From assembly GCA_024679065.1 (NCBI GenBank), contig JAGIQG010000009.1, positions 89,590,001 to 89,654,000 of the forward strand: a DNA stretch of 64,000 nt, in the 5' to 3' direction. The first letter of the stretch is position 1, and every line of letters begins with the position of its first letter. The stretch comes from Sphyrna mokarran. Taxonomy: Eukaryota. Made by a program: the position numbers and the translations under genes. The notes beneath the pieces are model-generated. The model had not been told where the DNA came from. It was given only the letters and a program-made list of their open reading frames with translations, and ran no database searches. Of the stretch, positions 8,828 to 59,914 are shown one piece after another.

Positions 8828-9682
8828 GTCTTCCCACAGTTATACTTGGGGCGATGGTCAGGATCTGTCTGTGGTGTTTATCCTCTCTGTATTCTCCTGT
8901 GTAGTATGGTGCAATACTTCTGTAAAACAGGAAAAGGAAACATGATTTCCTCCGATTCCCTCTCCTCCTTCGATGAAGGTGCTGACTCCTCAGTTGGAGG
9001 CTGTTCCACAGTGAGTGTCAATCCGCTATTTCCTCGTGTTGAGGATCAGATGCAACTTCCTCACTGGCACACGCCCTCTGTTTACAGTAGGGACACTGGA
9101 TAGTGACCAGGCACAGACAACATGGCTACTTTCCTTCCTTCACCCTAGTCCCACATTTTCCCAGGCAATGGAAAAGACAATCAAGTTGAGTGTAAAACAG
9201 GCAATTGATTCATTATGAGTTTGTGTCATGCTGCTGGAGACCAATTTTATATTTAGAGAATGTGTTTAACATAAAAAACTAATGAGCAAAGTTGATTAAT
9301 AGATATTTCAAAATATTTCTGCTTGAGTTCCCAAATTATTTTAGAAACCACACTGAACAGGAAGTAAGGAAAATATTGTTTCAGTGTAGCTAATTGAAGA
9401 GTTCTGGTTTATCCTGGGAAATTAGATACCTGGCACTCACTCAGGCTGCATATCCCAAATTCAGACACAGCATTGGGTAAAACTATCAAATCCAAACCCA
9501 GGCTTTTGGGAAAGGCCGAAACTTCAGGTAAATTCTTTAAAGAAGGCATTAAAAGACATTTCAATAAACGTATCTCTGCTCTTCCCATCTAATTACACCT
9601 CACTTTTTCATATTCAGAAATGACCATCAACAAAACTCAACCTATTAGTCAAAGTTATTATAAATTCTGCTCCTTCACTCAC

Positions 9683-18115: not shown

Positions 18116-19068
18116 TGTTAGGGACCAGACCAGAAAGTCCAAGTTATATTATGAAGTTAACCTAGATCCTAGCTTTTTTTTAATTTTGGCATTCAGGTTA
18201 CCATAAGGTACTTTGCTCCTGATATGTCCTGATTAACCCACTATGAAGCTTTTATTAAAATAGACTTTACATGACAACACAGTTAAAATATAAATAACTT
18301 TTACCAAATGAATTACTTGAACATGACAAGATGTTAACAAGTTCTTAACAGCTAGTTATCTCTGTAGTTCCAATGTAAGCAATATCCCCACTTATATAAA
18401 TTCCTCTTCAGAATCAGCAAGCGCAGAAAACATAGAAACTTACACAGGGCTTAGATTGCCAGCATTTTAACACCTCTGAACAGAGATACAGAATGACATC
18501 TGTCTTCTGACTCCTATATAGCTATGATGTAGAGATGCCGGCGTTGAACTGGGGTAAACTCAGTAAGAGGTCTGGCAACATCAATTTTAAATCTAACCGA
18601 TTTACTATCAAATAAATTTAAAATTGGTGTCGGCAGACCTCCTATATAGCCTCCAGAGAAAGATCTATCTTCAATAGCAGAATTTCAGAGAAAGAGATTT
18701 ATTTTCTGGCAGGTCCCAGTCTCCTAATCTGGAGAAAGAAAGAAATACACCTCTCTAACAATTTCCAGCAGCATCTGACTTGGTTTCTGTCTGTGTGCCT
18801 AGTCCCACTTCTTCACCTGATTTTTCCTGTCAATCAACCAAATGAACCCCCACTCTGAAAAATCCCAGGAGAAAATATTAAAACAACAATTGCATTAGCC
18901 TTGATTAAAACAAACATTCTAGCAATTGGGATCAATATGCTGCTGCAGTAACAACAGGGGTTGCCAGTTAGAGACAAATCACAACTAATTAATAGAACTC
19001 ACTGCTAAAAAAATCCTGCACAAGAAACACAACATAAATATATTTCTTAAAGGCACAGTATTGTCATA
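18116..19068. mobile_element. Solo LTR-like element inserted inside a zinc-finger codon run
   Basis: TGTTAG...TGTCATA ends; the flanks (ttcacaaacctc | cttgacacttgaaagg) rejoin as a FKCEVCE-type finger; homologous to 12371-13177. Confidence 0.6.
18523..18638 (-). mobile_element. Collapsed Penelope-like mini-element (pLTR tail plus short inverted arm)
   Basis: gatgtagagatgccggcgttg tail shared with the other Penelope copies; TSD CTCCTATATAGC at 18511-18522 and 18639-18650. Confidence 0.8.
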
Positions 19069-25441: not shown

Positions 25442-27580
<2,139 letters not shown>

Positions 27581-28418: not shown

Positions 28419-29367
28419 TGAACACAATGAACAGAAGAAATTCAGCCTTTATTTCTGCTGTCTCATTTAAATACAATCAGGGCTAATCTTTTACCTCAAT
28501 CCCACCTTCCACATCATGCCCATATTCCTTATTCACTTTATATCCAAAAATCCATCAATCTCCATCTTGAATATATTCAATGACTGGACGTTACAGCCTC
28601 TTGGTGTTGTGAGGCAGCAGTGCTAACTACTGTGCCACCTTAATTTTACATGTTATCAGTTGATATTTCAAAGTAGTGACTATGATTTGGTTGTAGAATA
28701 AACTGAAGACAGGAGTTAAAGGGACAATATTTGCCTGGAAAGGGGAGGTTATGTTACCAGTGTGTTGGGAGAAACCTTGCATTGGTTTGTGTAAATGTAA
28801 ACCACTTATTCTTGTTGTCAGATTCCTTTGCAATAAAGACCAATAGGCCATTTCTTTTCTGAATTATTCACTTACCTGCATGTTTTGTTTTCCAATCGAT
28901 ATTCAAAAGTTTCACATCTTTTAAAAAAAAATCTGCTTTGCTGTTCAGCACACAGTTGTTATTACAAAATGCATCTGTCCTTAGGTTAAACAGTTGTGCT
29001 TGCCAAATGTGGGTCTATGTTAAACATGCCCTTTCACATCTCATGAGATAATTTGCATATTGCAATTGATCCCTGCAGATATTGAATAGTTAAATACTTG
29101 ATAATTATAGAGAAGTGAAAGTTATTCCATCCCCTTACAGCCTACACCTTGATACTCTTTTGACCTGATGTTTCAATAAATGTTTTAATTATTAAATCAA
29201 TGCAACTCTATGTGCACAATTTAGAATGATAAACACTTATCTATGGGCTTTGATAAGAATTATTTATTGATTTCTTCATGGAATGTGGGCATTGATGGCA
29301 ATGCAAGCAAGTTACGCAACTCCAGCTGTGCTTGGAAAGCTGATGGTGAGCTGTCTTCATGAATCCT

Positions 29368-29596
29368 GATGTAGAGATGCCGGCGTTGGACTGGGGTAAA
29401 CTCAGTAAAGTTTTACAACACCAATTTTAAATCCAACCAATTTATTTGATAGTAAATTCGTGAGCTTTCGACTTTATAGCCTTCGTCAGGCAAACCAGAA
29501 CACTGCATTTGCCTGACGAAGGCTATAAAGTCGAAAGCTCGCGAATTTACTATCAAATAAATTGGTTGGATTTAAAATTGATGCTGTAAAACTTTA
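29368..29596. mobile_element. Penelope-like mini-element: two head-to-head pLTR copies plus tail
   Basis: About 90-bp inverted arms; TSD CTTCATGAATCCT at 29355-29367 and 29597-29609. Confidence 0.9.
29507..29546 (+). ncRNA. Minimal type I hammerhead ribozyme (inverted copy at ~29456-29494)
   Basis: AUUUGC-CUGACGA-A-GGCU(AUAA)AGUC-GAAA-GCU-C-GCGAAU: 6-bp stem I, 4-bp stem II, palindromic AGCU stem III, CUC cleavage triplet. Confidence 0.8.
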
Positions 29597-30547
29597 CTTC
29601 ATGAATCCTTGCAGTCTGTCTCGTAAATGTTGTGCAAGCATCAGTGAACATTACCCACTTTTGACCTTGTGATGCAAGGAAGATCATTGAAAATGGTTGG
29701 GTCTAGGTCACGACTCTGAGGAACTCCAACCACCACAACTATCTTCTTTTGTGCCAATTATGACTCCAACCAGCAGAGAGTTACCCCCCTGATGCCCATA
29801 GACTCCAGTTTTGCTGGGGCTCCTTGAGGCCCCTTTATATGAAGAGCAATCACTCTCATCTCTGAAATTCTGCTGTTTTGTCCATGTTTGAACCAAGGCT
29901 GCAATGAGTTCAGGAGCTGAGTGACCCTTGAGAAGCCCAAACCAAGCATCATGTTGTTGCTGTGCTTCTCTTAGGTAACCAAATAAACTTAAAGCAACAA
30001 ATTGAGGATAAATTGAAAAGCAGCCCCTTGAAGAGATATTGCATCAAAATAACAGAATCTCAAAAAAACTTAAAACATCAAAATAAAATGAAGGGGTCAA
30101 TAAGACATGACACGGAAGATCTTGATGCTGTGAGCAGACACTGCATACTCCCTTCCCAGGGAGAGGGGCAGGTAGTTCGAATGGATAACCCCTATAACCG
30201 CCCATTGTTTGGACTGATGAATGGCTAGCTGGCTTGATCCCAGAGCAAGTCCATGAGGATGTTCCCCTCTCTTCCTGAATCCTTCTCTGCACCAACTGTC
30301 TGAAAATCAGGAGCGTGGGACTGAAGTGCAACCAAAAAATAAAGTAACAGATTTTTCAGAAAACTGCAAAGCGGGGGGCTAGGTTGGATTTGTCCTGCTT
30401 TTTATGGACCTGGTCAATTTTCCACATTCTTCCATATCCTGGGTAGATGCCAGTGCTGTAACTGTACTGGAACAGCCTGGCTAGGGACATGTTTAGTTTT
30501 GGAGCACAAGGCTTTAGTACTATTGCTGGAATATTGTCAAGCTCATT

Positions 30548-35310: not shown

Positions 35311-38300
35311 AAGACACACAACACATCGAAAAAGAAAGACGCCAATGGAGACAGATAGACACATTTCATCAAGGATAGACAGCACACTCTTACCAAGAGA
35401 GTCTGGCACTGTCTTACCAAGGCAGACAGGGGGATACTGACAGTGAGAAACAGTAATGCATCAGAACAGACAGACGCACAGCTTCATGTTTGTCTTGTTT
35501 ATTTACTTACGATTTGCTGAACTATAAGCAATTTTTTTCTCTACTCCTACAAGGGACAGAAACACAAACAAATCTTTCATTACAAACAGCTCCTTCATCC
35601 TGTCCAGTCCCTTCATTCATTCATTACTGCTCATCACCACAGCCCCACTCCCCCAATCCACAAACTCACCAGGCAAAGTTTCTAAATTATTTGAAGCTAA
35701 CATAACTGAGAGTTTCCTACCTGCTCTCTTCCACACAATTGCACAAATGACAATGGTAATCACTGCAACAACAGCAACAATAATTCCAACATCCAAACCA
35801 AAATATGTTTCTCGTCTAGTTTCTGGAATAACTCTGAACTTCCCATCTGTGAGGAGAATGAGAAAATAATCAATGAATAAACACACCCACTATTCATTCA
35901 CAAACTATTGTATTAAAGCTGCATCTGATATTGAGTTAGAATCTGTGATGTGATGGACAGTCTGACCAAAAAACACAAACATATGAATTAGAAGTAGGAT
36001 TAGGCTTCTCGGCCCCTTAAGTCTCCTCTGCCATTCAGTAAGAACTTGGCTGGTCTGACTCTGGCTTTAACTCCATATTCACGCCTACTCCTATACATCC
36101 CTACTGTTTCCAGTAGCTTAGCAATCCTCTGTCTGTTTGTTCCAACTGCACCATGAGCTCTTATTTTGTATAGTAGCCTTTGATGTGGCACCTTGTTAAA
36201 TTCCTTTTGGAAGTCTAAATGCAGCACATCCATAGGTTCCCCTTTATCCACATTGTTTGTTACTTCTTCAAAAGCTCCTAATAAACGAGTCAAGCTTGTT
36301 CCTTCTTTAACAATTCCATGTTGATTCTGCCTGATTGCATTAAGATTTTCTAACTTCCCTGCTATAACATGCTTATTAATAGAATCCAGCATTTTCTTGA
36401 TCTAACTGGCCTACAGCTTCCTGCATTCTGTCTCTTTTCTTTCTTGAATAGAGGAGTTCACATTCAGTATTTTCCCATCTAAAGGGACCTTTCTGGAATT
36501 CTTGGAATTTTGGAAAATTAGGTAGAATGGCTCAGTGTGTCTGGGATGACACTCCTGTGAAACTCTTTGGGATGTTTATCTATATCAAAGTGCTAAATAA
36601 ATTGAGCATGTTGTTCACTTGCAGATATTGGAACTATGTGTCGTTCAAAAGTCCTTTCAAATCACCTACACAAAAGTGATTGATCCTCAAATAGACTCAG
36701 AATAGCCTTGTGGAAATATAGTGATGGGAAGTAAGAGATTTCTAGATAAAGAGAAGGTGAGATTATTGATCACAGATACTATTCCAATTCTGGAAAGGGC
36801 AATGCACTGGCAGATTCAAAGGCAGTGTAACTGGAGAGAATTAAGGGAGTGATTTCATAGCTGGGTATAAACTTTGATCAACAAATGGTGGGGAGGAGAT
36901 TGAGGAGAGATTTTAAAGCAGATTACAGAAAGAAACCAGAACTATAGAGTGCTGATGAGGGACCTATCTAAATACAGACTGGGATAGTGTGAAGAAAAAG
37001 GTGGAATGAGGAGAATTTCCTTAAATTTATACAGGAGAACTGCCTTGACTAGCAAGACAGAAATCAATATTGGAGTTCTTGATAATGAAGTTGGACAAAA
37101 TACGGCACCATTTAGAAAACAGTAATCAAAACATTAGGTTGCTTCCAATTTCCACCCCCCTCTCATCTCCAACATTTCCCTTCTCTTCCTTGACCTCTGA
37201 CCAGCAATATTCATTGCAGTCCCACCAGATCCCAATTACAGCTTTTCCGTAAGGATTCTATCCCATTCCCCCCTCATCTTTCAATTAGGTATATTATAGT
37301 CCTCAGAACTCAACAACTTTCAACTGTGATCTTTCCCGTCATCTTGACTTTTTAAAAACTATATCCCAAACACTTTTTGTCTCAATGGAAAAACTCCCCT
37401 TTCTCTCACCCACTGGACCATCTGTCACTTGTTCTTTATTTTTGCTTTCACTGAGCATTTATTTTCCCATTAACAATTCTGACATCTGCTACTACTACTA
37501 GCACTTTTTTCTGCTGTTAATGTTTCTCTGTCTTGTGACTACACGTCTTTGTTGGTATTGTTCCTCGCTCCCACCAATCACTGACTCATTACTCTGTTCC
37601 AGCTGATCCATCCCCTCTTATACATTATATAATCCATCACATTTCTCCCTCTCTTTCGCTCTGAAGAAGATTCATATTCTCCACAGACGATGTCGGGCCT
37701 GCTGAGCTTTTCCCACATATTCTGTTTTTGTTCTAGATTCTAGGGTTTGCAATATCTTGCTTTTTAGGTTTGGAGTGGAGATGGAAAAGAACAAGCAAAA
37801 ATGAAAATAATCACCCAGAGAAGAGCTAATTTGAAAATTAGTCAGATTGAAAAGGGATCTGACCCAGGTAAATTAGTTTTCTAAACATTAAAAGTAGGCA
37901 AGGAGGGATTGGGCTGGTTAGGGACTACAAACTAAACCATCATCGGGAAATATAGAGCCTGGCTGAGGTATCAATGAGTATTTTGCATTTGTTTTCATTA
38001 AAGAGGAGGCTGCCAATGACACAGTAAAGGAGAAGGTTGGCAAGACAAAGTACCAGACATTGAAGTTCTCTCTAGAGCAAGTCTACCATCAGTCCACACA
38101 CTGATGAGAGCACAGACCCGGTGGGCAAGTCATGTCATCTGTATGTCAGACGAGCGCAAACCCAAGCAGTTCCTTTTTGGGGAACTCTCTGCTGGAAGAC
38201 TCTCGCATGGAGGGCAGAAGAAACATTTTAAAGACCCACTCAAGGCCTCCCTGAAGTCACTTGACATTGATATGACCACCTGGGAAATGCTAGCATAAAA

Positions 38301-41300
38301 CCACTTTACCTGGTGCTGCCTCATCCACAGAGGCTGTCAAGCTCATGAAGAAAGGTGTATTGCTGAAACACAACTTAAGTGCGAGCTGCACAAGTCCAAA
38401 GCCAGCAGCGCAACAACTACAGCATCTACACAAGTCTATCCAGCATGTGCCAGGACATTCCATGCTCGAATTGGCCTGATCAGTCATGTTCAGACACACC
38501 GCAACCAGTCTCAAAATGACTAATGGTGTTGAGGTCCTCATTGATGACGATGGATGAACAACAAAGGAGGAGGTTGTAGAGAAATTGAATAGGATAGAAG
38601 TAGATCAAGAGATGGAGCTGTAGTCAAGCTTCAATAGCACTAAAGTGGAAAAGTCACCAGAGCAAGATGGAGTGCATCTGAGCTTATTTGAGGAAATGAA
38701 GGCTGGAGATATCAGAGGTCTAGTCACTAGCTGCCAATCCTCCTTCATTATGCCAGAGGATGGCAGCATCACAGAAGAAGAGGGATAAACCTGGAAACTA
38801 TAAACCAGTCAGTTTGGAGAGGCAGTGATGCAGTGGTATTGTCACTAGACTAGTAATCCAGAGACCCAGAGGAACTTGGATGGCCTAGCATGCCTATTGA
38901 AACACAATCACTGACAGACACTGTCCCTGCATTCACTGTTCTTCTTACCCCAGTCTCTGGTCACCACTTCTGTTTCACTCTGTTCATACTGACAGGAATA
39001 GGTGGCTCCATCTTTAGGGGTGATCTGAGCCCATCTCCGCAATTGGTAGGTCCGATCGTGATTGGGCAGGACGCCAGTGGAATACGTGTCCATGATTGGC
39101 TCACCATTTCTCAGCAGAGTGACTTCAATATCAGGAGGGTAAAATCCTGAGACCAAACACAACATTTGGGCTGGTTTGGTGTGTGATGTCTTGTCCATAG
39201 AAAGAAATACTTGTGGAACAACTGAGAGAGTAAAACAGATCAGAGCCTAGTCAATGAGAGACCAAGAATAGTACATACCTTAAACTGGAGATTAGACTCC
39301 TGACTCCACGAAATTGTACAAACCCCTTTAAACTGGAGAATTTATATGCCACTTTAGATCAGTGATTAAATAACTGACTCTTAGTCTCCCCCCCTTACTC
39401 TCAACCCTCCCCACATCTTTCAATACCCCTCCCCTCCACCACCTCGCTCTCAATCCCACCACCACTCCAATCTCTCAACCCTCCTTCCCCCCACATTTCA
39501 ACCCCTTCTCCCTGTTACTCAGTACCGTATCTTTTAAGTCCCTCCCCTCCTCACTCACTGGGTTTCAGATCTTGCTCTCCCTGCTCCAGGTACTTTTTCA
39601 GCCACTCGATGCAGGTTGCCTCCAGGTAAGCCTTCCTCTGCTGATTTCTGGCCTTGTCCTGATCCCACTTGTTCTTGGTGATCACTCCCCAGGCTACTGG
39701 GGTGACCCATACCATGTGATCCTTGTCGAAGCTGATGTAATCATTCCCATCCCAGCCTTCCTGGTGAAATCCACTGATTTGTCCATCATCCCTGAGCTCA
39801 CAGCCGTGCGTCACCTGGACCGTGTGGATCCCTGTCAATCAAACACACACAGCCAATCAGAGCCAAGTCCATGCGCATTTATCTGTCAATCAGTAGAGAG
39901 AGGGCAGGGAGAGGATGTTACTTCTCAAGTTCTTTCAATCTCAAACCATTCCCAATGATTGGAAGGTAGCAAACCCTGCTGTTTAATAAATGAGGATGAG
40001 AGAAACTAGGAAACCATAGCATAACATTAACAAGAAATAAATGTTGAAATTTATTGTTAGGGACATGGTAACAGGCAACTTAGAGAACTTTAATATGATT
40101 AAATAGCATTACTGTGGATTAATGAAAGATAAATCATGCTTTTCAAATCTGTTAGAGGTTTCTAAAGATGTAATGAAAAAAGGGGAACCAGTGGATGTGG
40201 TGTACTTGAATTTTCAAAATGATTTCGATAATGTACATGCGCATGTACAAAATTATGAATTAGGAGCAGGAAGTAAGCCCTTTGAAACTGCTCCACCATT
40301 CAATAATATCCATAGCTGATATGATTGTAACCTGAATTTCACCTGCTGTCTACCTCCCTCCCCCCTGATAGTCTTTCACCCCTTTGCTTATCAATAATCT
40401 ATTCAGCTCTGCCTACAAACATTCAAAATTTCTGCTTCCACTGCCTTTTTGAGATACAGAGTTTCAAAGACTCACAACCCTCTAAGGGGGAGAAGGAGCC
40501 AGACAAGAAGTTATTAATCAAATTAGGATAGATGGGTTTGAGGATTGGTTAATAAACAGAAAACAGAGTTGGAACAAATATATCGTGTTCAAATTGGGAA
40601 TCTATGGCCAGCAGGACTTTAGGCTTCTGCTAGTTAGCCCCAAGAGCCCAAATATGCAAAGCAGCTACAAGGGGTAGCAACAAGTTGGGTGAATAGGCAA
40701 GAACATGACAGATGGAATACAGTGTGCAGAAGTGTGAAGTCACGCACTTTAGTCCAAAACACAAAATTATATTTTTTTAAGAATGGCAAGAGCTGAGAAA
40801 TGTTTGATTTAGCAGGGATTTGGATATCTATGAATATAGAATCATAAAATAGTTACAGCACATGAGAAGGCCATTTGTCCCACTGTGTCTGTGTCAGCTG
40901 TGGCAAAAATAATTTACTCATATCACTTCCCTCTAAGACCTTTTTCCCATAGCTCAGAATTTTCTCTTTAGATAATTGTCTAATTCCCTCTTAAATCCTG
41001 TTGTGCCTCCACCACACTATCAAACAATACATTACAGATCCTAACCACTCACTGTGTGAATCTGCCTCCACCACACTCACACTCTGTCCCAGATTCTAAC
41101 CACTAGCTGTGTGAATCTGCATCCAGCACACACTGATACAGTGCATTCCAGATCCTAACCACTCTTCGTGTGAAATGTTTTTCCTCCATTTCCATTGCTT
41201 CTTTTCCCAATTATAATAAATCTATTCTTCCAACAATGGGAAAAGTTTCTCCCTACCTCCTCATGAACTACATCTGGTAAGTTAGCATGTGTACAGCAAT

Positions 41301-44300
41301 TAAGAAAGCAAATGATATGTTGGCCTTTGTTAAAAAGGGGTTGAAGTATATGATTAAAGAAGCCTTATTGCAATGACATAGCTGACACCTGGGAGGCTGT
41401 GTACAGTTTTGGTCTCCTGTGGCACTGTGGGAGGCATGGTGGCACAGTGATTAGCACTGCTGCCTCACAACATCAGGGACAAGTGTTTGATTCCCAGCTT
41501 GGGTCACTGTCTATGTGGAGTCCGCACATTCTTCCTGTGTCTGTGTGGGTTTCCTCCAGGTGCTCTGATTTCCTCCCACAGTTCAAAAGACATTCTGGTT
41601 AGGTTCTTTGGCCATGCTAAATTCTGCCTCAGTGTCCCTGAACAGGTGCCAGAGTGTGATGACTTGGGGATTTTTCACAGTCATTAGTGTTATTGTAGGC
41701 CTACTTGTGACAATAATAAACTTTATCCAAAAAGGGATATACATGTCCTGAAGTGTACAAAGATTCACTAGACTGGTCCCTGAGATCAGATAAGTATGCT
41801 CTGAGGAGAAATTGAGTAGACTACACCTGATGTCTTAATGAAAGGTGACTTCATTGAAACATGTAAAATTTGGGAAGTGTGAATGTTCAAAGAGACCCAT
41901 GTATCCTTTCCATGGGTCACTAAAAGTTAGCATGCAGATGCAGCAAGCAATTAAAGTGAATTTTATGATGGCCTTAATTACATGATGATTAAAGTATAGA
42001 AGTAAAGATCTCTTAATACAGCTTTACAGGGTCTTGGTATGACCTCAGCTGGAGCACTGTGCAAGTTTGGGTCACCTTACCTAAGAAAGGTTATTCAGAA
42101 AGAATACAACTGAGGTTCATCAGACAGATCCCTGGGATTGCAGGATTGTCGAATAGAGAGAGATTGAGGAGACTGGGTCTGTATTCACTGGAGTTAAAAC
42201 TGAGAGATGACCTTACTGAAACGTGCAAAATCTTTTGGGGGGAAGGGAGGACTGAGAAGGAAGGGGGATGCCGAGAAGGAAGGGGGGGCTGAGAAGGAAG
42301 TGAGGGGCTGAGAAGGGAGGAGGGGTGCTGAGAAGGAAGAGGGAGATGAGAAGAACGGGGTGGGGGCCAAGAAACAAGGGAGGGGGAACGAGAAGGAAGG
42401 GGGGGCGAGAAGGAAGGGGAGGACAAGAAAAAAGAGGGGGCGGTTGCTGATGACACGGTAGATGTGAATAAGATGTTTTCTCTGGCTGGTGAGTTTAGTA
42501 TCAGAGAAAAAAATCTTAGACAGATTATTGAGAACTGAGGGGAGGAGAAGCAATTGCTTCATGTGATGGGGGTGAATCTTTGGAATTGCCCTACCCAAGA
42601 GGTCCATGATAAAGTTCAGGAGTCTAATTACATCAAATGAGATGGAGATAACCTCTGTTCCTAATTCGTAAAGGACTTGACAGGATTGTGACTGTAATAA
42701 ATAAACTTAATACAAGGATGGAGACTTGAGAAGTCACGTACTCCGGCTAGGGAACAGAGAACACGGGGACAAAAACAGAAAATGTTCGAAAACCTCAGCA
42801 GGTCTGACAGCATCTTTGGAGCTAGGGAGCAGAACCAATATTTCAAATCTGAATGACCCTTCGTCAGAAAACACGGAGACACACTTAGGATAAGATCTGC
42901 TGTTTAGAATGGAATTGAAGAGAAATTTCTTCACTCAAAGGATTTGTGAATCTTCGGAATTCTGTGCCCTGGATGTTCAGACCCTGGCAGTATTAATAAC
43001 AGATTAATAGATCTTGGGATACTAAGAGAATTAAGTGATGTTGGGCTGTGAGGCTGAGCTGGAGGATTAGCTAGGAACCTACTGAATAATGGAGAAGGCT
43101 CAACTTTATAATGTTCAAAATTATTGTAAGATACAGGGAGGTTAGGAACAGGGAGAGAGAGTGAAAGAGAGAGAGATATTGGTGGTGGTAGGGTTGGGTG
43201 GGTGGCACCGATAAACATTGGGGAGATAGAGTGACGCAGGGTGGAAGTTGGAGAGAGTGAAAGCTCACCGCCACTCTGGTTGGTGCGATTTAAGGCTGTC
43301 TGAATATTGGTCTGTCCAACGTGCTCGGAGCTCCTTAGGAACTGTGTCTGCTGCTCCCAGTATTCAGCGCTCTGACACTGTTCCATCCATTGCTGCCGTG
43401 GAACTAGTTTCCGAAGATCACTGTCGTAGTAATCAATCGGGATCTCGTCTACATAGCCAACAGCTACAAATTCGGGAAGGCCAGGAATTGGAGTCATCGC
43501 AGTGTAGAAATACCGGAGTGTGTGAGAGACTGAAACAGAGAGAGACAAATGATAGAATATGAACCCCACAAATGGCAAGAGACAGACATCAGAGCCCCTG
43601 TAAATAAACCCCAACACAACACAGAGCCCCAATTTCTTCAAATTAACTTATTTTTCAGCTGCAACTTCTTTGGTGGCATGTGACTCTACAGCAGATGCCA
43701 GACTGTTGTGTTGGGATGTATTTACAGGGGCACCAGTTCCAAAGCACTGTGTTGACTCTTAACTGCCCTCTGAGCCACTGAATTAAGGACAATTTGGAAT
43801 TGAATGTAGTGTTACAATTAATGATAGCCCAGACAGGGCCATATCAACCAATTAATAAAAAAAAATTACATTGAGTTGGTATGTATTTCGATGAGTTTAG
43901 AAGATAATAGGCATGTCCACTATGAGTCTCACCAGCTTTTACAAATACACTAGAGAAAAGCATTATTCCTGGTTGTATCACAGCTTGGTATGACTCCTGT
44001 TCTGTCCAAGATTGCAATAAACTACGAAGAGTTGTGAACAAAACCCAATCCATCATGAAAACCTGCCTCCCATCCATTGACACTGCCTACAATTCCTGTA
44101 GCCTCAGAAAACAACCAGCATAATCAAGCATGCACTCTGGCAATTCTCTTTTCCACCTTCTGTCTTTGGGAAAAAGAAACAAAAGTTTGAGGACAGGTAC
44201 CAATCAACTCAAGAACAGCTTCTTTCCTGCTGCCATCAGACTTTTGAATGGACCCACCTCGCATTAAGTTGATCTTTATCTACATTCTGGCTACGAACTG

Positions 44301-44546
44301 TAACATTGTATTCTGCACTCTCTTCTTTCCTTCCTTATGTATAGTATACCTTGTCTGTGTAGTCCAAGAAACAATACTTTTCACTGTATGCTATTATATG
44401 ATAATAATAATTCAAATCAGTTCAGAAATCATTACTCGCTGAAGGGTTAATACCCCAGTGCACAGACGCTATGACTCCCTCTGACTCCATTACTCACCTG
44501 CTGTGACCCCTCCACAAAAAAGGAGCAGCGTTAACAGTCCAATCAT
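35126..44546 (-). CDS. MHC class I heavy chain gene, 7 exons, about 350 aa (U-type; lineage not determined)
   Basis: join(44546-44498, 43529-43269, 39831-39559, 39221-38949, 35846-35721, 35546-35511, 35160-35126) = 1053 nt; all introns GT-AG phase 1; open frame through leader, a1, a2, a3, TM and two cytoplasmic exons. Confidence 0.93.
35241..35305. repeat. (CT)n-(CA)n compound microsatellite in MHC intron 6
   Basis: Direct reading. Confidence 0.95.
35511..35546 (-). CDS. MHC class I exon 6, cytoplasmic (GVEKKIAYSSAN)
   Basis: 36-nt phase-1 exon, pyrimidine-rich acceptor and GTAAGT donor; contains a Tyr as in class I exon 6. Confidence 0.7.
35721..35846 (-). CDS. MHC class I exon 5, connecting peptide and TM
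   Basis: DGKFRV..VGIIVAVVAVITIVICAIVWKRA; AG/GT flanks. Confidence 0.88.
35985..36520 (-). mobile_element. Degenerate CR1 RT fragment
   Basis: ORF 36000-36392: QHGIVKEGTSLTRLL..FEEVT..VDKGEPMDVLHLDFQKEFNKVPHQRLL. Confidence 0.75.
38039..38562 (+). mobile_element. 5'-truncated RTE-clade LINE in MHC intron 4
   Basis: WQDKVPDIEVLSRASLPSVHT..RAQTRWASHVICMSDERKPKQFLFGEL..HGGQKKHFKD; imperfect TSD aaaggag(a/g)aggtt at 38026-38038 and 38563-38575. Confidence 0.8.
38949..39221 (-). CDS. MHC class I exon 4, alpha3 (Ig C1)
   Basis: LCLVSGFYPPDIEV..GVLPNHDRTYQL..YSCQYEQ..RDW. Confidence 0.93.
39559..39831 (-). CDS. MHC class I exon 3, alpha2
   Basis: GIHTVQVTHGCEL..WDGNDYISFD..ITKNKWD..AYLEATCIEWLKKYL; T143, K146, W147, Y159, W167, Y171 and both Cys present. 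Confidence 0.95.
41432..41722 (+). mobile_element. HE1-type SINE nested in a CR1 remnant
   Basis: ggcatggtggcacagtgattagcactgctgcctcac head; gtttcctccaggtgctc core; acaataataaac end. Confidence 0.75.
43269..43529 (-). CDS. MHC class I exon 2, alpha1
   Basis: VSHTLRYFYTAM..PEFVAVGYVD..YDSD..EYWEQQT..LNRTNQSG; Y7, Y59, R84 and N86 glycan site present. Confidence 0.95.
43900..44410 (+). mobile_element. Rex1/Babar-like LINE 3' fragment in MHC intron 1
   Basis: agcattattcctggttgtatcacagcttggtatg..; ctcaagaacagcttctttcctgctgccatcagacttttgaat; ends ataataataa. Confidence 0.55.
44498..44546 (-). CDS. MHC class I exon 1, leader MIGLLTLLLFCGGVTA
   Basis: Hydrophobic signal peptide; donor GTGAGT. Confidence 0.9.
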
Positions 44547-44687
44547 TTTTACTTCCTTGAACAGTTTGTGAGGAATCCTTATGGCTCTGCGTTGTGCCCA
44601 GTTCAGACTAGATAATTCCTTTGAGCTGTGCCCTGTCTAATGGTAGTCTAACAGGTACACAAACAGCTTTAAGAACTGCTCCACAGA

Positions 44688-44710
44688 TTAGGTCAACAGT
44701 TACAGGAAAC
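44688..44710 (-). promoter_or_regulatory. Putative X1/X2-box-like element of the class I promoter
   Basis: Minus strand GTTTCCTGTAAC (RFX-like) followed by TGACCTAA (CRE-like), ~150 bp upstream of the ATG. Confidence 0.35.
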
Positions 44711-44837
44711 CACAAAGATTATCAGCAGCAACTCCAGTGTGCTCAGCCTAAATGTAAACAAGTTGATGAATGGTGCAGAGATTAATGGTGCAGGAAGGTT
44801 TGAAAACTCAATTGACTGGGATGTTCCAATTGATTAG

Positions 44838-45094
44838 TAAGAGGTCTGACAATACCAATTTTAAGTCCAACTGATTTATTTGATAGTAAACTTGCAAGCT
44901 TTCGGCCTTTGTAGCCTTCGTCAGGCGAATGAGGTGTTCTGGTCTGCCAGAACACCTCATTCGCCTGACGAAGGCTACAAAGACCGAAAGCTTGCAAGTT
45001 TACTGTCAAATAAATCGGTTGGATTTAAAATTGGTGTTGTCAGACCTCTTACTGAGTTTACCTCAGTCCAACGCCAGTATCTCTACATCATGAC
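44838..45094. mobile_element. Penelope-like hairpin mini-element with two hammerhead motifs (44890-44930 minus; 44959-44999 plus)
   Basis: About 105-bp inverted arms around tctg, then the tail ...ctctacatcatgac; flanked by TCCAATTGATTAG at 44825-44837 and 45095-45107. Confidence 0.9.
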
Positions 45095-46561
45095 TCCAAT
45101 TGATTAGTAGTCATGATATACAGATGCCGGCGTTGGATTGGGGTGGTAAGAACTCAGTAAGAATTTAGCAACACCAATTTATAATCCAACCGATTTATTT
45201 GATAGTAAAAACGCGAGCTTTCAACACTCTGTGTCTTCCTCAGGCAAATGCAGTGTTCTGGTCTGCAATAGCACACATCAGCACAGACAGTCAGAGATTG
45301 CTGATTAGAATGCGAATCCTTACATCTAACCTGCTATTGAAGTGTTAAAGTGGCGAACAATGTGTGTGAAGGGAATCCTGAGCATTGTTGGAGAATTGTG
45401 TGTTTTCTCCAGACAGCACAGTAAGTGAGGTTTTTTGCTAACCCAGGCAAGTTACGGGGGTTACAGATAGTGTGTCATGAAGCCAAGATCCCTGTTAAGA
45501 GCGTCCTCATGTGTGCGGAGCTTGGCTATCAGTCTCTGCTCAGCGACTCTGCGCTGTCGTGTATCACGAAAGCCCCCTTGAAGAACATTTACCCGCAGGT
45601 CGGAGGCCGAATGCCCATGACTGCTGAAGTGTTCGCCCACAGGAAGGGAACTGTTTTGCCTGGTGATTGCTGAGCGATGCTCATTCATCCGCTGTCGTAG
45701 TGTCTGCATGGTCTCCCCAATATACCATGCTTCGGGACATCCTTTCTTGCAACGTATTAGGTAGACAACGTTGGCCGAGTTGCAAGTGTATGTACCGTGT
45801 ACCTGGTGAATGGTATCCTCACGTTTGATGATGTCGTCCATGTCTATGATCCGGCATGTCTTGCAGAGGTTGCTGTGGCAGGGTTGTGTGGTATTGTGGT
45901 CACTGTTCTCCTGAAGGTTGGGTAGTTTGCTGCGAACAATGATCTGTTTGAGGTTGTGCGGTTGTCTGAAAGCAAGAAGTGGGGGGGTGGGGATGGCCCT
46001 AGCGAGATGTTCATCGTCATCAATGATATGTTGAAGATTCCGGAGAAGATGTCGTAGCTTCTCCGCTCCGGGGAAGTACTGGACAACAAAGGGTACTCTG
46101 TCCACCGTGTCCCGTGTTCGTCTTCTGAGGAGGTCAGTGCGGTTTATCGTTGTGGCACGTCGGAACTGTCGATCGATGAGTCGAGCGCCATATCCTGTTC
46201 TCACGAGGGCATCCTTCAGCGTCTGGAGGTGTCTGTCACGATCCTCCTCATCTGAGCAAATTCTGTGTATGCGGAGGGCTTGTCCATAGGGAATGGCTTC
46301 TTTAACGTGTCTAGGGTGGAAGCTGGAGAAGTGGAGCATTGTGAGGTTGTCTGTCGGTTTGCGGTACAGTGAGGTGCTGAGGTGACCGTCCTTGATGGAG
46401 ATGCGTGTTGCAGACCAGAACACTGCATTTGCCTGAGGGAGACACAGAATGTTGAAAGCTCGCGTTTTTACTATCAAATAAATCGGTTGGATTATAAATT
46501 GGTGTTGCTAAATTCTTACTGAGTTCTTACCACCCCAATCCAACGCCGGCATCTGTATATC

Positions 46562-49241
46562 ATGACTACTATCGACACCGCATACTGCCGGATCCAAGTG
46601 GAGAGGATCTCCAAGAGGATTGCACATATCGACACAGACATCAAGTTTCTACAGAGATGCAAGAAGGCAGACAGGATACCAAAGGGACTACAGATCACGA
46701 ACCCACTCAGGTCAACCTATAACACAGACTACGCTGAGAGGCTTTGCTGTCGCACCTCTCTCACACTCCTCAATCACCTCATACACCAGCTCTATAGCAA
46801 ACGCCACACCCTGGAAAGTAAAATGGAATACATATTCTCAACTTGCGCTCAGGACGCAGATCAGTTGTGAAACTTTGCCAAGCAGATGAGACAAAGAAAC
46901 TACACCATTTACATGCACACCAAGAACAGGAAACTTGAAAAACTTGGCATCGCCACCAGCAACAACCAAGCCTCCCTTGGCACCACAGTAGAAAACAACA
47001 CTACCGCAGGGAGGTCCATTGTTAACCTGTCGGACTACACACTTCAATCAGAGGAAATCGAAGTTCTCAGCCGAGGGCTCAATTTCTGTCCCACCACCAA
47101 AATGGACCCCATCAGTCTCGCAGCAGATACAGAGGAATTCATCAGGCGAATGAGGCTGCGTGAGTTCTTCCACAAACCCCAAGAGGCTAATAGTGGACTC
47201 AATGAGACAGCTAATGAACCAGAACAGCCGACAGAGGGATCCGCAGTGCAGCAACCGAAGAGGAATGAATCCAATTGGACTCCTCCGGAAGGCCGCTGCC
47301 CCCGACTGGACATGTATGCCCAAGCCATCAGGAGGTGCGTGAACACCAGATTTATCAACCGCACTTACAAGACAGTCCCGAACATCACCCAAGTACAAAG
47401 CAAGGCCATCCGTGCTCTCAAGACCAACCGCAACATTGTCATCAAACCAGCAGACAAAGGAGGCGCCACCGTCATACTGAACAGAACGGACTACTGTGAA
47501 GAAGTGTACCGACAACTAAACAATGAGAAACACTACAGACAGTTACCAGCAGATCCAACCAAAGAACACACTCGTCAACTCAACACTCTGATCAAAACCT
47601 TTGATCCGGACCTTCAGAACACCCTCCGGGCTCTCATTCCACGTACTCCCCGCATTGGAGATCTCTACTGCCTCCCAAAGATACACAAGGCAAACATACC
47701 CGGCCGTCCCATCGTATCGGGCAATGGGACCCTGTGTGAGAACCTCTCCGGCTATATCGAGGGCATCCTGAAACCCATCGTACAAAGAACCCCCAGCTTT
47801 TGTCTTGACACTACGGACTTCCTACAGAAACTCAGCACACATGGAGCAGTTGAACCAGGGACACTCCTTGTCACAATGGATGTCTCGGCGCTCTACACCA
47901 ACATCCCCCACGACGATGGTATTGCTGCAACTGCCTCAGTACTCAATGCCAACAACTGCCAGTTTCCGGATGCAATTTTACAACTCATCCGCTTCATCTT
48001 GGACCACAATGTCTTCACCTTCAACAATCAGCTTTTCATCCAGACACACGGAACAGCCATGGGGACCAAATTCGCACCTCAGTATGCCAACATCTTCATG
48101 CACAGGTTCGAACAAGACTTCTTCACCACACAAGATCTCCAACCAAGGTTATATACTAGATACATTGATGACATCTTTTTCCTTTGGACTCATGGTGAAC
48201 AATCATTGAAACAACTGTATGATGATATCAACAAGTTCCATCCCACCATCAGACTCACCATGGACTATTCTCCAGAATCAGTTGCATTCTTGGACACACG
48301 CATCTCCATCAAGGACGGTCACCTCAGCACCTCACTGTACCGCAAACCGACAGACAACCTCACAATGCTCCACTTCTCCAGCTTCCACCCTAGACACGTT
48401 AAAGAAGCCATTCCCTATGGACAAGCCCTCCGTATACACAGAATTTGCTCAGATGAGGAGGATCGTGACAGACACCTCCAGACGCTGAAGGATGCCCTCG
48501 TGAGAACAGGATATGGCGCTCGACTCATCGATCGACAGTTCCGACGTGCCACAACGATAAACCGCACTGACCTCCTCAGAAGACGACACGGGACACGGTG
48601 GACAGAGTACCCTTTGTTGTCCAGTACTCCCCGGAGCGGAGAAGCTACGACATCTTCTCCGGAATCTTCAACATATCATTGATGACGATGAACATCTCGC
48701 TAGGGCCATCCCCACCCCCCCACTTCTTGCTTTCAGACAACCGCACAACCTCAAACAGATCATTGTTTGCAGCAAACTACCCAACCTTCAGGAGAACAGT
48801 GACCACAATACCACACAACCCTGCCACAGCAACCTCTGCAAGACATGCCAGATCATAGACATGGACGACATCATCAAACGTGAGGATACCATTCACCAGG
48901 TACACGGTACATACTCTTGCAACTCGGCCAACGTTGTCTACCTAATACGTTGCAAGAAAGGATGTCCCGAAGCATGGTATATTGGGGAGACCATGCAGAC
49001 ACTACGACAGCGGATGAATGAGCATCGTTCAGCAATCACCAGGCAAAACAGTTCCCTTCCTGTGGGCGAACACTTCAGCAGTCATGGGCATTCGGCCTCC
49101 GACCTGCGGGTAAATGTTCTTCAAGGGGGCTTTCGTGATACACGACAGCGCAGAGTCGCTGAACAGAGACTGATAGCCAAGCTCCGCACACATGAGGACG
49201 GTCTTAACAGGGATCTTGGCTTCATGACACACTATCTGTAA
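46562..49241 (+). pseudogene. Penelope RT + GIY-YIG ORF (about 893 aa if repaired): one TGA and two 1-nt deletions
   Basis: IVIKPADKGG, LYCLPKIHK, GTAMGTKFAPQYANIFM, RYIDDIFF; Cys linker PCHSNLCKTC; NVVYLIRCKKGCPEAWYIGET; stop at 46868-46870; deletions near 48585 and 48628 relative to the in-frame inverted arm. Confidence 0.92.
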
Positions 49242-49453
49242 CCCCCGTAACTTGCCTGGGTTAGCAAAAAACCTCACTTACTGTGCTGTCTGGAGAAAAC
49301 ACACAATTCTCTAACAATGCTCAGGATTCCCTTCACACACATTGTTAGCCACTTTAACACTTGAATAGCAGGTTAGATGTAAGGATTCGCATTCTAATCA
49401 GCAATCTCTGACTGTCTGTGCTGATGTGTGCTATTGCAGACCAGAACACTGCA

Positions 49454-49492
49454 TTTGCCTGAGGAAGACACAGAGTGTTGAAAGCTCGCGTT
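49454..49492 (+). ncRNA. Hammerhead ribozyme motif in the 3' pLTR (copies at 45210-45248 minus and ~46428-46466 plus)
   Basis: UUUGC-CUGAGGA-A-GACAC(AGA)GUGUU-GAAA-GCU-C-GCG; stem I is short (3 bp); the 46.4-kb copy has CUGAGGG. Confidence 0.65.
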
Positions 49493-50317
49493 TTTACTAT
49501 CAAATAAATCGGTTGGATTATAAATTGGTGTTGCTAAATTCTTACTGAGTTCCAATTGATTAGAGCAGTGCTGATTATCTTAGGGATTGACAATGTCTCA
49601 GTACAAATACAAGCTGTGTGGGTAGGACGGGAGACACAGCTCCCATCTTTCACACTGGTAATTGTGAGGTGGGAATGGGATATGGTTGACAGGAGTGAAG
49701 GAGAGTGAGCACCTTCCATGACAGAGCAGAAATTGGAATCCTTATTCCTGGCTCAATTTGCTCTCAATCTGAAGGTGATGTTGGGAGTGAATTGTAAGTG
49801 TTGTTGTGTTGTAATGAAGTGCATGCTTTAAATTGACAATTCAACATAGCCATTGCTAAATTAGGGAATCATTGTTCAACTATATACACCAGTTCACTCT
49901 GATCATCAGGGAGGAACTGGGAGAGTTCTGGGAAATAAATCTGATGTCAGGATAGATGAGCTTTATTCACTTTCCCTCAGCATGCAGTTTTTGGAATTAA
50001 TATAGTTGTCCATCCACAAAGGATTGGGCTGGGGTACACATTGTGAGGGAAATGGGTGAATATGTTTGAGCTGCAGAGCCTCAGGAAAGTCAGTTCTCAG
50101 CTGTGGAAGGACCGAGACTGGAATAGTGTCAGTCTACAAGGATGCTGAGAGCTGAGATGGGATGAGGGAGAAGGGGAGGAGGATTAGAGTGTGAAGAAAG
50201 AGAAGTGGGGTATTGTTGTCTGGTATCTAACACAGAGGCCTGAAGCTTGTATAGTTAAATGGTTATTAGTAAACCATAATTATATAAATAGTTCTGAGGT
50301 ACAGTTCTCATTATGAA

Positions 50318-51659: not shown

Positions 51660-53530
51660 TGTTGGTGCAAGTGGGCAGACACGACTGCTATGGACTCAGA
51701 GTCAGGTTCAACAGTGGTACAGCTTTATTTTAATGTCGACGGAGGTGCAGTCAGGATATACAAACTGAACTCTCCCGAAAGCACTCTAAAGGCCTCCGCA
51801 ATGGGCTAAAGTTGTACTCAAACTTTGGTACATTGTATGATTCAAATGTTAATGTTATGTTTACAGTATTTAGAACATAGAACATAGAACATTACAGCGC
51901 AGAACAGGCCCTTCGGCCCTCGACCAATTAAGAAAAAGCAATGACCCTCTAACCTAAACCATTCCCTTTTCATCCATAAACCTATCCACGGACCTCTTAA
52001 ACGTCCCCAAACTTGGCGCATCTACAACTGCAGCAGGCAGGGCATTCCATACCCTTACCACCCTCTTGGTAAAGAACCTACCTCTGACATCCGTCCTATA
52101 ACTACCACCCCTTAATTTAAAGCTATGTCCCCTCGTGCTAGCTTTCTCCATCCTAGGAAAAAGGCTATCACTGTCCACCCTATCTAAACCTCTAATCATC
52201 TTATATGTTTCAATAAGGTCTCCTCTTAGCCGCCTTCTTTCTAACGAAAACAATCTCAAATCCCTCAGCCTCTCCTCATAAGACCTGCCTTCCATACCAG
52301 GCAACATCCTGGTAAACCTCCTCTGTACCCTCTCCAATGCCTCCACATCTTTCTTATAATGTGGGGACCAGAACTGCACACAATACTCCAAGTGCAGCCG
52401 CACTAGAGTTTTGTACAGTTGCAACATGACGTTGCGGCTCCGAAATTCAATCCCCCTACCAATAAAAGCTAAGACTCCGTATGCCTTCTTAACAACCTTA
52501 TCGACTTGATTGCCAACTTTCAGGGATCTATGCACACATACACCAAGATCCCTCTGTTCATCAACACTATTAAGAGTCCTACCATTAGCCCTATACTCTA
52601 CACATTTGTTATTCCTGCCAAAGTGCATTATCTCACACTTTTCCACATTAAACTCCATTTGTCACCTCTCGGCCCAGCTCTGCAACTTGTCCAAGTCTCT
52701 CTGCAAACTATAACACCCCTCTTCACTATCTACCACTCCTCCGACTTTGGTGTCATCCGCAAATTTACTAATCCATCCTTCTATGTCCTCATCCAGATCG
52801 TTTATAAAAATTACAAACAGCAGTGGCCCCAAAACAGATCCCTGAGGCACACCACTTTTAACTGAACTCCATGATAAATAGTTTCCATCAACCACCGCCC
52901 TCTGTCTTCTATCAGCTAGCCAATTCCTGATTCAATTAGCTAAATCACCCTCAATCCCATACATCTGCATTTTCTGCAGAAGCCTTCCATGGGGAACCTT
53001 ATACTATGCCTTACTAAAGTCCATATATACCACGTCAACTGCCTTACCCCCATCCACCTCTTTGGTCACTTTTTCGAAAAACTCCATTTGATTCTGACCA
53101 TTCTGTTTTGATGTTTTCAAGTGTCGTATCGATGTTTTAAATACGGTAATTGTTTCTGTCTGATGGGTTTATCAATGGTTTAGAATCTCTGGAGTTTCTT
53201 GAACAATGGGTGTTTGGCTGATCTCAGGAAGTTTGTGAGGCCAGGAAGGCTTCCTTAGTTATGTTAATCCTTAGGTGTCTCCACAGAGATTTACTTGATT
53301 AGGTCAGAGGTGCTGATTTGATTAGATGGGGGTTTACTTTTAATTTAGTTTCTGTTGGTGCCATCCTGTCCGGTTCCCTTTGTGTGTTAGCCCTTGTTTG
53401 CATTTCAAAAACATGTCTTTTGCCTTCTTGTCTGGATCTGTTGTGATCTTTAGTGGGGAGGTTCTGAGTGCAGCTTTAGTCTGCTTCCATATTGTGTACC
53501 CAATTTCAGAAGATTTGTTGTCCAATAACA
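51660..53530 (-). repeat. ERV 3' LTR (about 650 bp, interrupted by CR1)
   Basis: Collinear with 61673-62306; AATAAA on the minus strand at ~51724-51729; purine tract GACAGGCGGGAAC immediately upstream (53531-53543). Confidence 0.92.
51872..53085 (-). mobile_element. Young 5'-truncated CR1 inserted in the 3' LTR
   Basis: Highly similar to 339-1553; ORFs 51954-52658 and 52662-52895; attt flanks both sides. Confidence 0.95.
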
Positions 53531-55125: not shown

Positions 55126-56495
55126 TTCTTTCTTTGGACTCATGGTGAACAATCATTGAAACAACGATATGATGATATCAACAAGTTCCATCCCACCATC
55201 AGACTCATCATGGACTATTCTCCTGAATCGGTTGCATTCTTGGACATATGCATCTCCATCAAGGATTGTCACCTCAGCACCTCACTGTACCACAAGCCCA
55301 CAGACAACCTCACAATGTTCCATTTCTCCAGCTTCCACCCTAAACATGTTAAAGAAGCCATCCCCTATGGACAAGCTCTCCGTATACACAGAATTTGCTC
55401 AGATAAGGAGGATTGTGACAGACACCTTCAGACGCTGAAAGATGACCTCATGAGAACAGGATATGGTGCTCGACTCATCGATCGACAATTCCGATGCGCC
55501 ACAGCGATAAACCGCAACGACTTCAAAAATCAAATACGGGACATGGTGGACAGAGTACCCTTCATTGTCCAGTACTTGCCCGGAGCAGAGAAGCTACGAC
55601 ATCTTCTCCAGAGTCTCCAACACATCATTGATGGAGATGAAAATCTCGCCAGGGTCACCCCCCCCCCACTTCTTGCCTTCAGACAACTATGCAACCTCAA
55701 ACAGACCATTGTTCTCAGCAAACTACCCAACCTTCAGGAGAACAGTGACCACAATACCACACAACCCTGCCACAGCAACCTCTGCATGACATGCCGGATC
55801 ATCGACATGGGATGACATCATCACACGTGAGAATACCATCCACCAGGTACACGGTACATACTCTTGCACTCGGCCAACGTTGTCTATCTAATACATTGCA
55901 AGAAAGGATGTCCCGAAGCATGGTACATTGGGGAGACCACGAGGACACTACAACAGCGGATGAATGAACATCGCTCGACAATCACCAGGCAAGACCGTTC
56001 CCTTCCTATTGGCGAACACTTCAGCGGTCATAGGCATTCGGCCTCCGACCTTTGGGTAAGCATTCTCCAAGGTGGCCTTCACGACACACGACAGCACAGA
56101 GTCGCTGAACACAGACTGATAGCCAAGTTCTGCACATATGAGGACAGTCTCAACAGGGATTTGGGTTCATGTCACACTATCTGTAACCCCCATGACTTGC
56201 CTGGGTTTGCAAAACCTCACTTACTATACAGTCTGGAGACAATACAATCTCTTTAACCTGTGCTCAGTGCTCCTTCCACTCACATTGTTAGCCACTTTAA
56301 GACTTGAATAGCAGGTTAGGTGTAAAGATTCGCATTCTAATCAGTAATCTGTAAACAGTCTGTGCTGTTACATGTGCTCTCTGAGACCAGAACACCTCAT
56401 TCACCTGATGAAGAGGTCGAAACACCTCAAAAGCTTGTGAGTTTACAATCAAATAAATTGGTTGGACTTAAACTTGGTGTTGTCAGACTTCTTAC
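55126..56495 (+). mobile_element. 5'-truncated, decayed Penelope-like copy inserted in env, with hammerhead-like motif at 56399-56442
   Basis: Homologous to 48175-49550 (FFLWTHGEQSLKQ..YIGET); AUUCAC-CUGAUGA-A-GAGGU..ACCUC-AAAA-GCU-U-GUGAGU (G12 lost). Confidence 0.9.
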
Positions 56496-56905
56496 TATGT
56501 GGATCTGTAGCCACACAGATAAGGAGTACATATTGGAATACATCCTACAGTTCTCAGAATATGGTGCAGCCGGCACGCACAACACCTCGGATGTATTAAA
56601 CATTATTTCATGGAATTGTTAATAGGTGGTGTGCCCCTGGAAGACGACACTCGTCACCAAGGTCGCAGTGAGGATCGTCCTCCAGACAGTCAGCATTATC
56701 CTGGAGAAGGGGTGGGGAGGGTACACAAAGCACGATGGCTGCCAGATATTAGGATCTCAGTATTAACTATATTTTAACTAACTTACTTAAGCATGCACAG
56801 ACATCTATATACATTTATCAGAGCCATGATTGACATGTGGCTCTCCTCCGTGCTGGAAATGAAGGTTGTTAGCTCGACTTCCGCTGTGTAGATAAAGGTG
56901 GTTAA

Positions 56906-59218: not shown

Positions 59219-59914
59219 GTTAAACCAAAGTGTAAAGCATCGTGTAATAAATACTCCACAAAACAAACAGACTTTTAATTGCTCTTAACTTAATGCAACA
59301 ACAATCACATTCGATAAGCAACCAGACCACACAAACACATTGAAATACAAAACTACTCAAATTATTAACTCAACCTTAGATTTCTCTAATCAATTTTCCA
59401 TCTTGCCAATTAATTTATAATATTTTCCTGGTAAGTTGAGAAAATATAATTCCTTTCTCTCAAAATTCTGTAACACACTGCAAACTTCTTCCTTTTTTTA
59501 AAAAAAGGACCACTTGTGTGATTATATACAGTGTTAAGATTCTTTAAAACATTCATTCCCTCCCAATCAACAATATCTCCTGGTAATTCCATGTCTTCCT
59601 TGCAACTAATAGTCACTGAATTCATTAGACCAGAGGCAAATTCTAAACTTACTGTGGGATCAGATGCCTCTGGAAAAAGAAGTGGGGGGGGTGGGGGGGG
59701 TCCCCAGTCAATGCCACAACCCAATCCATAAACACTATTTCCCTCAGACTCAACTGTCCCAAACCAGACAACATCTTTATCTGCATGACAACTTGAGAAT
59801 TTACTTGATTAATCTCCTGCTAGAACTTGAAGTAATCAGAACTTGGATTCTTTTCACTAACTTGATATACTTTAAACTGACTCATTATGTCCAAATTTGC
59901 CACAATTCAAGCAT

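Follow-up and report, generated by a model that had tools for sequence, protein, structure and literature searches.

The 64,000-nt stretch of the Sphyrna mokarran genome analysed here (contig JAGIQG010000009.1, positions 89,590,001 to 89,654,000, numbered from its first letter and called the window below) carries on its minus strand an MHC class I-like gene and, in the DNA upstream of it, two Penelope-like elements, A and B, which are bracketed by three copies of the 13-mer TCCAATTGATTAG. A preliminary description of this DNA had read the arrangement as two successive insertions, of a 257-bp mini-element and of a 4.4-kb element of a different subfamily, at one target, and on these points our results agree with it: the 13-mer is exact at 44825, 45095 and 49551, with no further match at two or fewer mismatches in the window; the pseudo-long terminal repeats (pLTRs) and tails of A and B are identical at 113 of 147 positions and the helix II of their predicted hammerhead motifs is also different; and contigs from relatives lack both elements. 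None of 200 base shuffles of 44700-49700 produced any 13-mer in three copies (a separate shuffle control counted matches with up to two mismatches, mean 3.26, and is not a test of three exact copies). The leader ATG of the gene is at 44546, with copy 1 situated 279-291 bp upstream, and 4,726 bp have been inserted in total.

The inserted elements

Both elements have the anatomy of endonuclease-bearing (EN+) Penelope-like elements, with pLTRs, an inverted 5'-truncated partner and a tail at one end, and both are flanked by duplications of the native target, three copies of which are present (Table 1). The open reading frame (ORF) of B, with its ATG at 46562 and its stop at 49241, codes for a reverse transcriptase (RT) domain (PF00078, E 1.3e-09) followed by a C-terminal GIY-YIG endonuclease domain (PF01541, E 4.1e-05), the latter also found in the inverted arm; the frame is now broken by an in-frame stop at 46868-46870 and by one-base deletions near 48585 and 48627. 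Between the two domains lies the linker CHSNLCKTC, and a CX2-5CxxC motif in this place defines the Neptune and Nematis clades (PMC8557442). Placed by its linker motif and the order of its domains, B is a Neptune/Nematis-type Penelope-like element. Its combination of a direct pLTR-ORF-pLTR unit and an inverted 5'-truncated arm is described as typical in PMC8557442. The inverted arm of B is 99.0% identical to 48296-49552, with 10 substitutions and two one-base gaps in 1259 columns.

A and B lie in opposite orientation, the tail of A pointing right and that of B left, and the facing tails form a hairpin across target copy 2. The 13-mer has an AT-rich core, with ATT on both strands. Copies 1 and 2 share 15 nt (two extra on the right), copies 1 and 3 also share 15 nt (two extra on the left) and copies 2 and 3 exactly 13, and because of these shared extra bases the cut positions are not uniquely fixed by the sequence.

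An old, 5'-truncated copy related to these elements lies at 55126-56496 (plus strand; 86% to B). Its end is followed at 56497 by the 11-mer ATGTGGATCTG, another copy of which is at 54113; the pair may be a duplication enclosing about 1 kb of unrelated DNA.

Table 1. Positions of the elements, target copies, control mini-elements and gene features in the window
Feature	Position	Strand	Remarks
Target copy 1 (gene-proximal), native 13-mer	44825..44837		Exact match; contigs of relatives (X2 record 15, X3 record 30) align to exactly 44837
Element A, head-to-head fold-back of two pLTR copies	44838..45094		257 bp
A left arm, without tail	44838-44945	minus	
A right arm	44947-45094	plus	43-nt tail extending past the ORF ATG
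Target copy 2, between the tails of A and B	45095..45107		Loop of an 85-nt tail-to-tail hairpin (45060-45144)
Element B, Neptune/Nematis-type Penelope-like element (by linker motif and domain order)	45108..49550		4,443 bp
B inverted 5'-truncated arm	45108..46408	minus	End of RT region, Cys linker, GIY-YIG, 3' UTR, pLTR, 44-nt tail (left end)
B direct unit	46408..49550	plus	5' pLTR, ORF (RT, CX4CxxC linker, GIY-YIG), 3' UTR, tail-less pLTR
Target copy 3 (distal)	49551..49563		Unique right flank beyond
Control fold-back mini-element	29355..29609		Flanked by an exact 13-bp duplication, CTTCATGAATCCT; one end has a 38-nt tail
Control deleted fold-back mini-element	18511..18651		12 bases duplicated exactly, 13 if one mismatch is allowed; one end has a 46-nt tail
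MHC class I-like gene	35511..44546	minus	PF00129, PF07654
Leader exon	44546-44498	minus	
Alpha1 exon	43529-43269	minus	
Alpha2 exon	39831-39559	minus	
Alpha3 exon	39221-38949	minus	
Transmembrane (TM) exon	35846-35721	minus	
First cytoplasmic exon	35546-35511	minus	
Proximal upstream region of the gene	44547..44824	minus	Left in place by both insertions

Contigs from other sequencing runs

Contigs from four (X1, X2, X3 and X22) of 24 listed sequencing runs were compared over 43250-45400; X1 is possibly the source sample and hence not independent. The X1 contig matches 44371-44864 without a difference, crossing copy 1 and entering A by 27 nt, which is below the 31 nt required by our rule for bridging. 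This speaks in part against an assembly artefact at the left junction; none of the contig pieces listed spans the middle junction, and the right one lies beyond the region compared. In X2, from another organism, and in X3, one contig each begins to align near 44370 and stops aligning at exactly 44837, with 20/467 and 23/470 differences over 44371-44837 (95-96% identity), and go on for a further 501 and 613 nt that do not align, with no second piece in A or B. Since these contigs reach the last base of the 13-mer and continue without either element, the 13-mer is the native target. A composite mobile unit, in which A and B would be joined through the 13-mer, was rejected on the same evidence, the 13-mer being native at the orthologous site and the contigs of the relatives lacking both elements.

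The suggestion in the preliminary description that the insertions may be polymorphic found no support, the one run that holds the locus showing no branch at the left junction, which is a weak sign. Assembled contigs branch at alternative alleles, and they also drop variants; that the X1 contig runs through 44837 hints that X1 has neither an empty nor a B-only allele. The summed contig depth at 44906-44977 and 45338-45400 is 4e5-1e6 in X1 and 35-1,023 in X2 and X3 (85% likeness), and this depth, which is not a copy number, suggests lineage-specific bursts of both subfamilies.

Junctions, targets and hammerhead motifs

Two further mini-elements in the window are flanked by duplications of their own, and their targets are unrelated in sequence to each other and to the 13-mer. 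All four duplication-flanked insertions show an apparent 13-nt duplication (one with a mismatch) and have one tailed and one tail-less end. The idea of a hotspot had been based on both the shared position and the shared stagger of A and B. What is left in favour of a possible hotspot is the reuse of the position, a single case of one double among five insertions; the stagger was discarded as a sign, since 13 bp is common to both other duplication-flanked copies and, as a trait of the family, lends no extra weight to a hotspot.

At the eight junctions the duplication and the continuation of the element overlap by 2, 1, 3, 2, 1, 2, 0 and 3 bases, 14 in all (P = 7e-5 to 6e-4 against a geometric null), where one overlap was read by eye from the alignment and the tailed end of A was judged against the sequence of B. 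Priming with one to three paired bases would account for these overlaps. A palindrome of 6-8 bp is present in the three independent targets (3/3) and in 9.7% of the 13-mers of the window (12.5% when AT-matched), a comparison made post hoc. A cruciform target was considered and rejected, because the inferred empty site folds no better than random window DNA (55% of 2000 window controls fold as well).

The minimal hammerhead core (CUGANGA-N-helix II-GAAA-GC-UH plus helix I) is predicted in 6/8 pLTR copies of sufficient length: it is present in both arms of A, at 44924 (minus) and 44965 (plus), and in two of the three pLTRs of B, and absent from the 5' copy of B and from the old copy at 56.4 kb. 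Rfam gave eight matches, all under the gathering score and none a hammerhead, and in the free folding of five pLTR arms no z-score was significant and the hammerhead shape was not favoured; the hammerheads of A and B are thus put forward as predicted motifs. One further hammerhead-like core lies at 42867 (minus), in an unrelated repeat in intron 2 of the class I-like gene. The direct pLTRs of A (44947), of B (46408) and of the mini-element at 29.4 kb (29490) begin at almost the same place (CCAGAAC), and the predicted hammerhead cut follows some 50 nt downstream. If, as is possible, this start is the 5' end of the RNA, the mini-elements may have arisen by run-off from autonomous transcripts and may not be a self-amplifying family.

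Order and age of the insertions

The arms of A differ at 5/105 columns, all by transitions and with changes on both arms, and those of B at 12/1259 (six differences on one arm, five on the other and one ambiguous), and this higher divergence (Fisher P = 0.007) indicates that A was inserted before B. Arm divergence in A does not differ significantly from that between the window and the relatives (P = 0.79), while that in B is far below it (P = 2e-5). We infer for A an age probably close to that of the split and likely fixation; B alone could plausibly still be segregating. The other complete mini-element, at 29.4 kb, has about 5% arm divergence as well (88/93 identical).

The class I-like gene and its upstream region

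Six exons are modelled for the gene; together they have 339 stop-free codons, all modelled splice sites are GT-AG, and leader, alpha1 to alpha3 and TM exons are in open frame, as in MHC class I. In the tree of alpha1 and alpha2 the gene shares a clade (99/98) with those of catshark, bamboo, zebra and horn shark (76-87%), and compared with two Triakis sequences labelled 'MHC class I antigen', which we take to be classical UAA, it reaches 60-62% over alpha1 and alpha2 and 27% over alpha3; it does not group with classical shark class Ia (UAA). From these comparisons we regard it as a conserved gene of the class I-like kind, intact and not part of the classical lineage, which lessens the weight of the earlier claim of an altered MHC allele. 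As for the name of the lineage, the reference look-ups returned no sequence labelled UDA, UBA or UEA, and neither the cluster look-up nor the available text of PMC12562908 gave one. The gene resembles the elasmobranch MHC-Ia-like genes in its class I domain structure, in its flanking C2H2 zinc-finger ORFs and in forming one conserved lineage, here over five shark genera in the tree (PMC10751288). A contig of X22, from the organism of X1 but another sample, by our guess RNA, is identical to 43268-43408 and departs from the genomic sequence at the alpha1 donor, its further 357 nt being unaligned, which is what a spliced transcript would show; X22 has no cover over 44474-44761 and is uninformative on the start site.

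The CCAAT about 290 bp upstream of the ATG, which the preliminary description regarded as Y-box-like, is indeed at that distance, but its reading as a Y box found no support. The NF-Y consensus RRCCAATSR and the X1/X2-like promoter motifs used for comparison are crude mammalian ones, and shark promoters may differ. In its context, TTCCAATTG, the CCAAT misses the NF-Y consensus, and CCAAT/ATTGG occurs 192 times in the window, with 11 others inside A and B. In the SXY module the X box lies 20-22 bp upstream of the Y box (PMC4374748); by these mammalian motifs, no X1/X2-like match at that spacing was found in the inferred pre-insertion sequence, and the CCAAT does not qualify as an MHC Y box in such a module. 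No study of a shark class I promoter was found among the literature matches listed. A kappaB-like 10-mer, GGGATGTTCC, at 44818-44827 overlaps target copy 1 and stays on the gene side; kappaB-like matches are not enriched in the window (20, with 15.4 expected).

Distal DNA has been moved away by the full length of the two insertions, as had been proposed, but its regulatory nature found no support, and a change in the expression of the gene is likewise unsupported. Both insertions spared the frame of the gene and left 279 bp of proximal upstream sequence in place. With a conserved gene of non-classical type, its frame and proximal upstream DNA intact, the relevance of the locus to shark immunology is lower than first proposed.

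Among the other features of the window, a high-copy repeat fragment at 43900-44400, in intron 1 of the class I-like gene, is also found in the runs of the relatives. C2H2 zinc-finger arrays, some split over frames, lie downstream of the gene at 7694-8839, 19185-20386 and 25876-27445 (minus). Broken pol-like ORF pieces at 56906-59274 (minus), integrase- and RNase H-like by eye, point to an LTR or retrovirus-like element, and two near-identical C-terminal fragments of a LINE RT, CR1-like by eye, lie at 423-1562 and 51954-52661 (minus).

Discussion

We put at about even the chances that A and B are two separate target-primed insertions made by Neptune/Nematis-type proteins, A first and B much later, with B reusing a good target. 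This reading starts from what is observed, namely the anatomy of the elements, their duplications, their absence in the relatives and their relative ages, and adds a probable course for the nicks, the priming and the reuse of the target. In each event the two strands would be nicked 13 nt apart, and both 3' ends would prime reverse transcription within the RNA, one primer starting at an upstream site, which would give the tail-less end, and the other about 40 nt further on, which would give the tailed end, each priming being assisted by the pairing of 1-3 nt to the template. A would be a short product, both of its cDNAs having run off at the 5' boundary of the pLTR, while in B one side would be a copy of the whole unit and the other side a copy of 1.3 kb. 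B would have re-cut the distal target copy of A because this copy kept the AT-rich core and ends that can pair with either start site; the likeliest reason for the reuse is that a duplicated target stays a good target.

Several points weigh against this reading. The alignments of the relatives end at 44837, so that the join of a one-copy empty site beyond it is reconstructed, and the middle and right junctions are without read support. The target preference is based on three sites. Fold-backs might carry differences between their arms from birth, which would spoil the clock, and the junctions also fit B as the earlier insertion, given a pair of duplications of 15 bp each that are shifted by 2 nt, and overlaps of 4 nt. 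Furthermore, the Poseidon element of Anolis carolinensis (PAc) is reported to start without homology (PMC11167929), in contrast to the overlaps of 1-3 nt with the target seen at the junctions here.

It is possible, although we hold the idea tentatively, that Neptune-type proteins home to the tails of older copies, even of another subfamily and in the same register, the endonuclease being drawn to a genomic tail and re-cutting the adjoining target copy, so that older copies seed insertions and tail-to-tail chains are built. Whichever element came first, the second used the copy beside the tail of the first and lies tail to tail with it, and an exact reuse is improbable under uniform targeting, at about 3e-4 for the five insertions in the window. 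The endonuclease of D. virilis Penelope reportedly needs tail sequence to recognise and cut DNA, and nicking within its own pLTR is considered possible for the anole protein (PMC11167929). However, this is a single case, in which the tailed or the tail-less side could come up as in a coin toss, no second insertion is found at the two other tailed mini-elements in the window, and the tails of A and B are only about 80% alike. If true, homing would be an in vivo function for the tail-dependent cutting that has been reported for D. virilis Penelope, as well as a route for the pile-up of elements at loci like this class I-like promoter.

We consider it unlikely that the site is in no way special and that, among very many insertions, one of a few exact doubles was met by scanning. 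Five such insertions lie in 64 kb, and the summed X1 contig depth, no measure of copy number, is about 1e5 times as high over the element ends as over the unique flank. With 2e5 copies and 3 Gb, both assumed, there would be 13 exact doubles under uniform targeting and 133 if a tenth of the positions were usable, and with such numbers a scan can meet one. Nevertheless, the probability for this window is low, rising from the uniform value to about 7e-3 if 4.8% of positions are usable, and a non-random choice of targets is indicated by the overlaps at the junctions and by the palindromic cores. Metagenome contigs scanned for a pLTR pattern gave 0 stretches, and a literature search of partial coverage, through titles and abstract openings, found no account of same-site reuse by Penelope.

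The reverse order, in which B came first with a 15-bp duplication and A then cut 2 nt into its tailed end, making a second 15-bp duplication with a common core of 13 bp but other nick positions, seems to us quite improbable. It would turn the 15 nt common to copies 1 and 3 and to copies 1 and 2 into duplications and their extensions into 4-nt priming overlaps, and the arm divergence of the mini-element at 29.4 kb questions the clock; but the arm divergence places A first, both independent duplications in the window are of 13, and the shared TA is explained by the word UACU at both start sites. An assembly artefact, a single complex event or recombination of A-only and B-only alleles through the 13-mer is very hard to believe, since, even if two junctions are without reads and such insertions are known to trouble assemblies (PMC8557442), both ends of A and both ends of B are complete and canonical, an X1 contig matches the left junction, independent differences on the arms are not expected from a collapsed assembly, and a single event yields two target copies and not three.

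Target choice and the completion of integration are poorly known for Penelope-like elements, only one of which has been reconstituted in vitro. The present locus and its two neighbours supply clean natural junctions, with a constant 13-nt duplication, short overlaps and one reuse beside a tail, and such junctions turn target choice into a simple genome-wide count.

Comparison with known elements

In vitro, the anole Poseidon element cuts both strands, and two internal start sites define its tail; AT-rich targets are a feature that PAc has in common with A and B, which would also resemble it in two start sites bounding the tail and in the cutting and extension of both strands, although PAc belongs to a clade different from that of B and, unlike PAc, A and B have their predicted hammerhead upstream of the ATG (PMC11167929). 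The motifs themselves match the minimal hammerheads of metazoan Penelope-like pLTRs (PMC4209133) and solo or monomer retrozyme-like copies (bioRxiv 10.64898/2026.07.22.740005) in CUGANGA, the extra base, helix II, GAAA, the palindromic GC, UH and the short helix I. Unlike a head-to-tail tandem retrozyme, A has its two copies folded back head to head and is flanked by a target duplication.

With the EN+ Penelope-like elements, A and B share the order of RT and GIY-YIG, the linker, the pLTRs, the inverted 5'-truncated copy at the 5' end, the tail at one end and the target duplication, and in Adineta a Penelope copy has been described inside another in opposite orientation (Pen2a in Pen3) (PMC8557442; PMC3846280). 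The duplications are of 13 bp here and of 8-10 bp in the Adineta elements (PMC8557442; PMC3846280), and the tails measure 38-46 nt (43 and 44 nt in A and B), compared with the 30-40 nt described (PMC8557442). The insertions themselves are therefore of a known kind and it is their shared target that is unusual: unlike those of the EN+ elements in the available descriptions, the targets here are not microsatellites, and two subfamilies occupy a single target copy (PMC8557442; PMC3846280).

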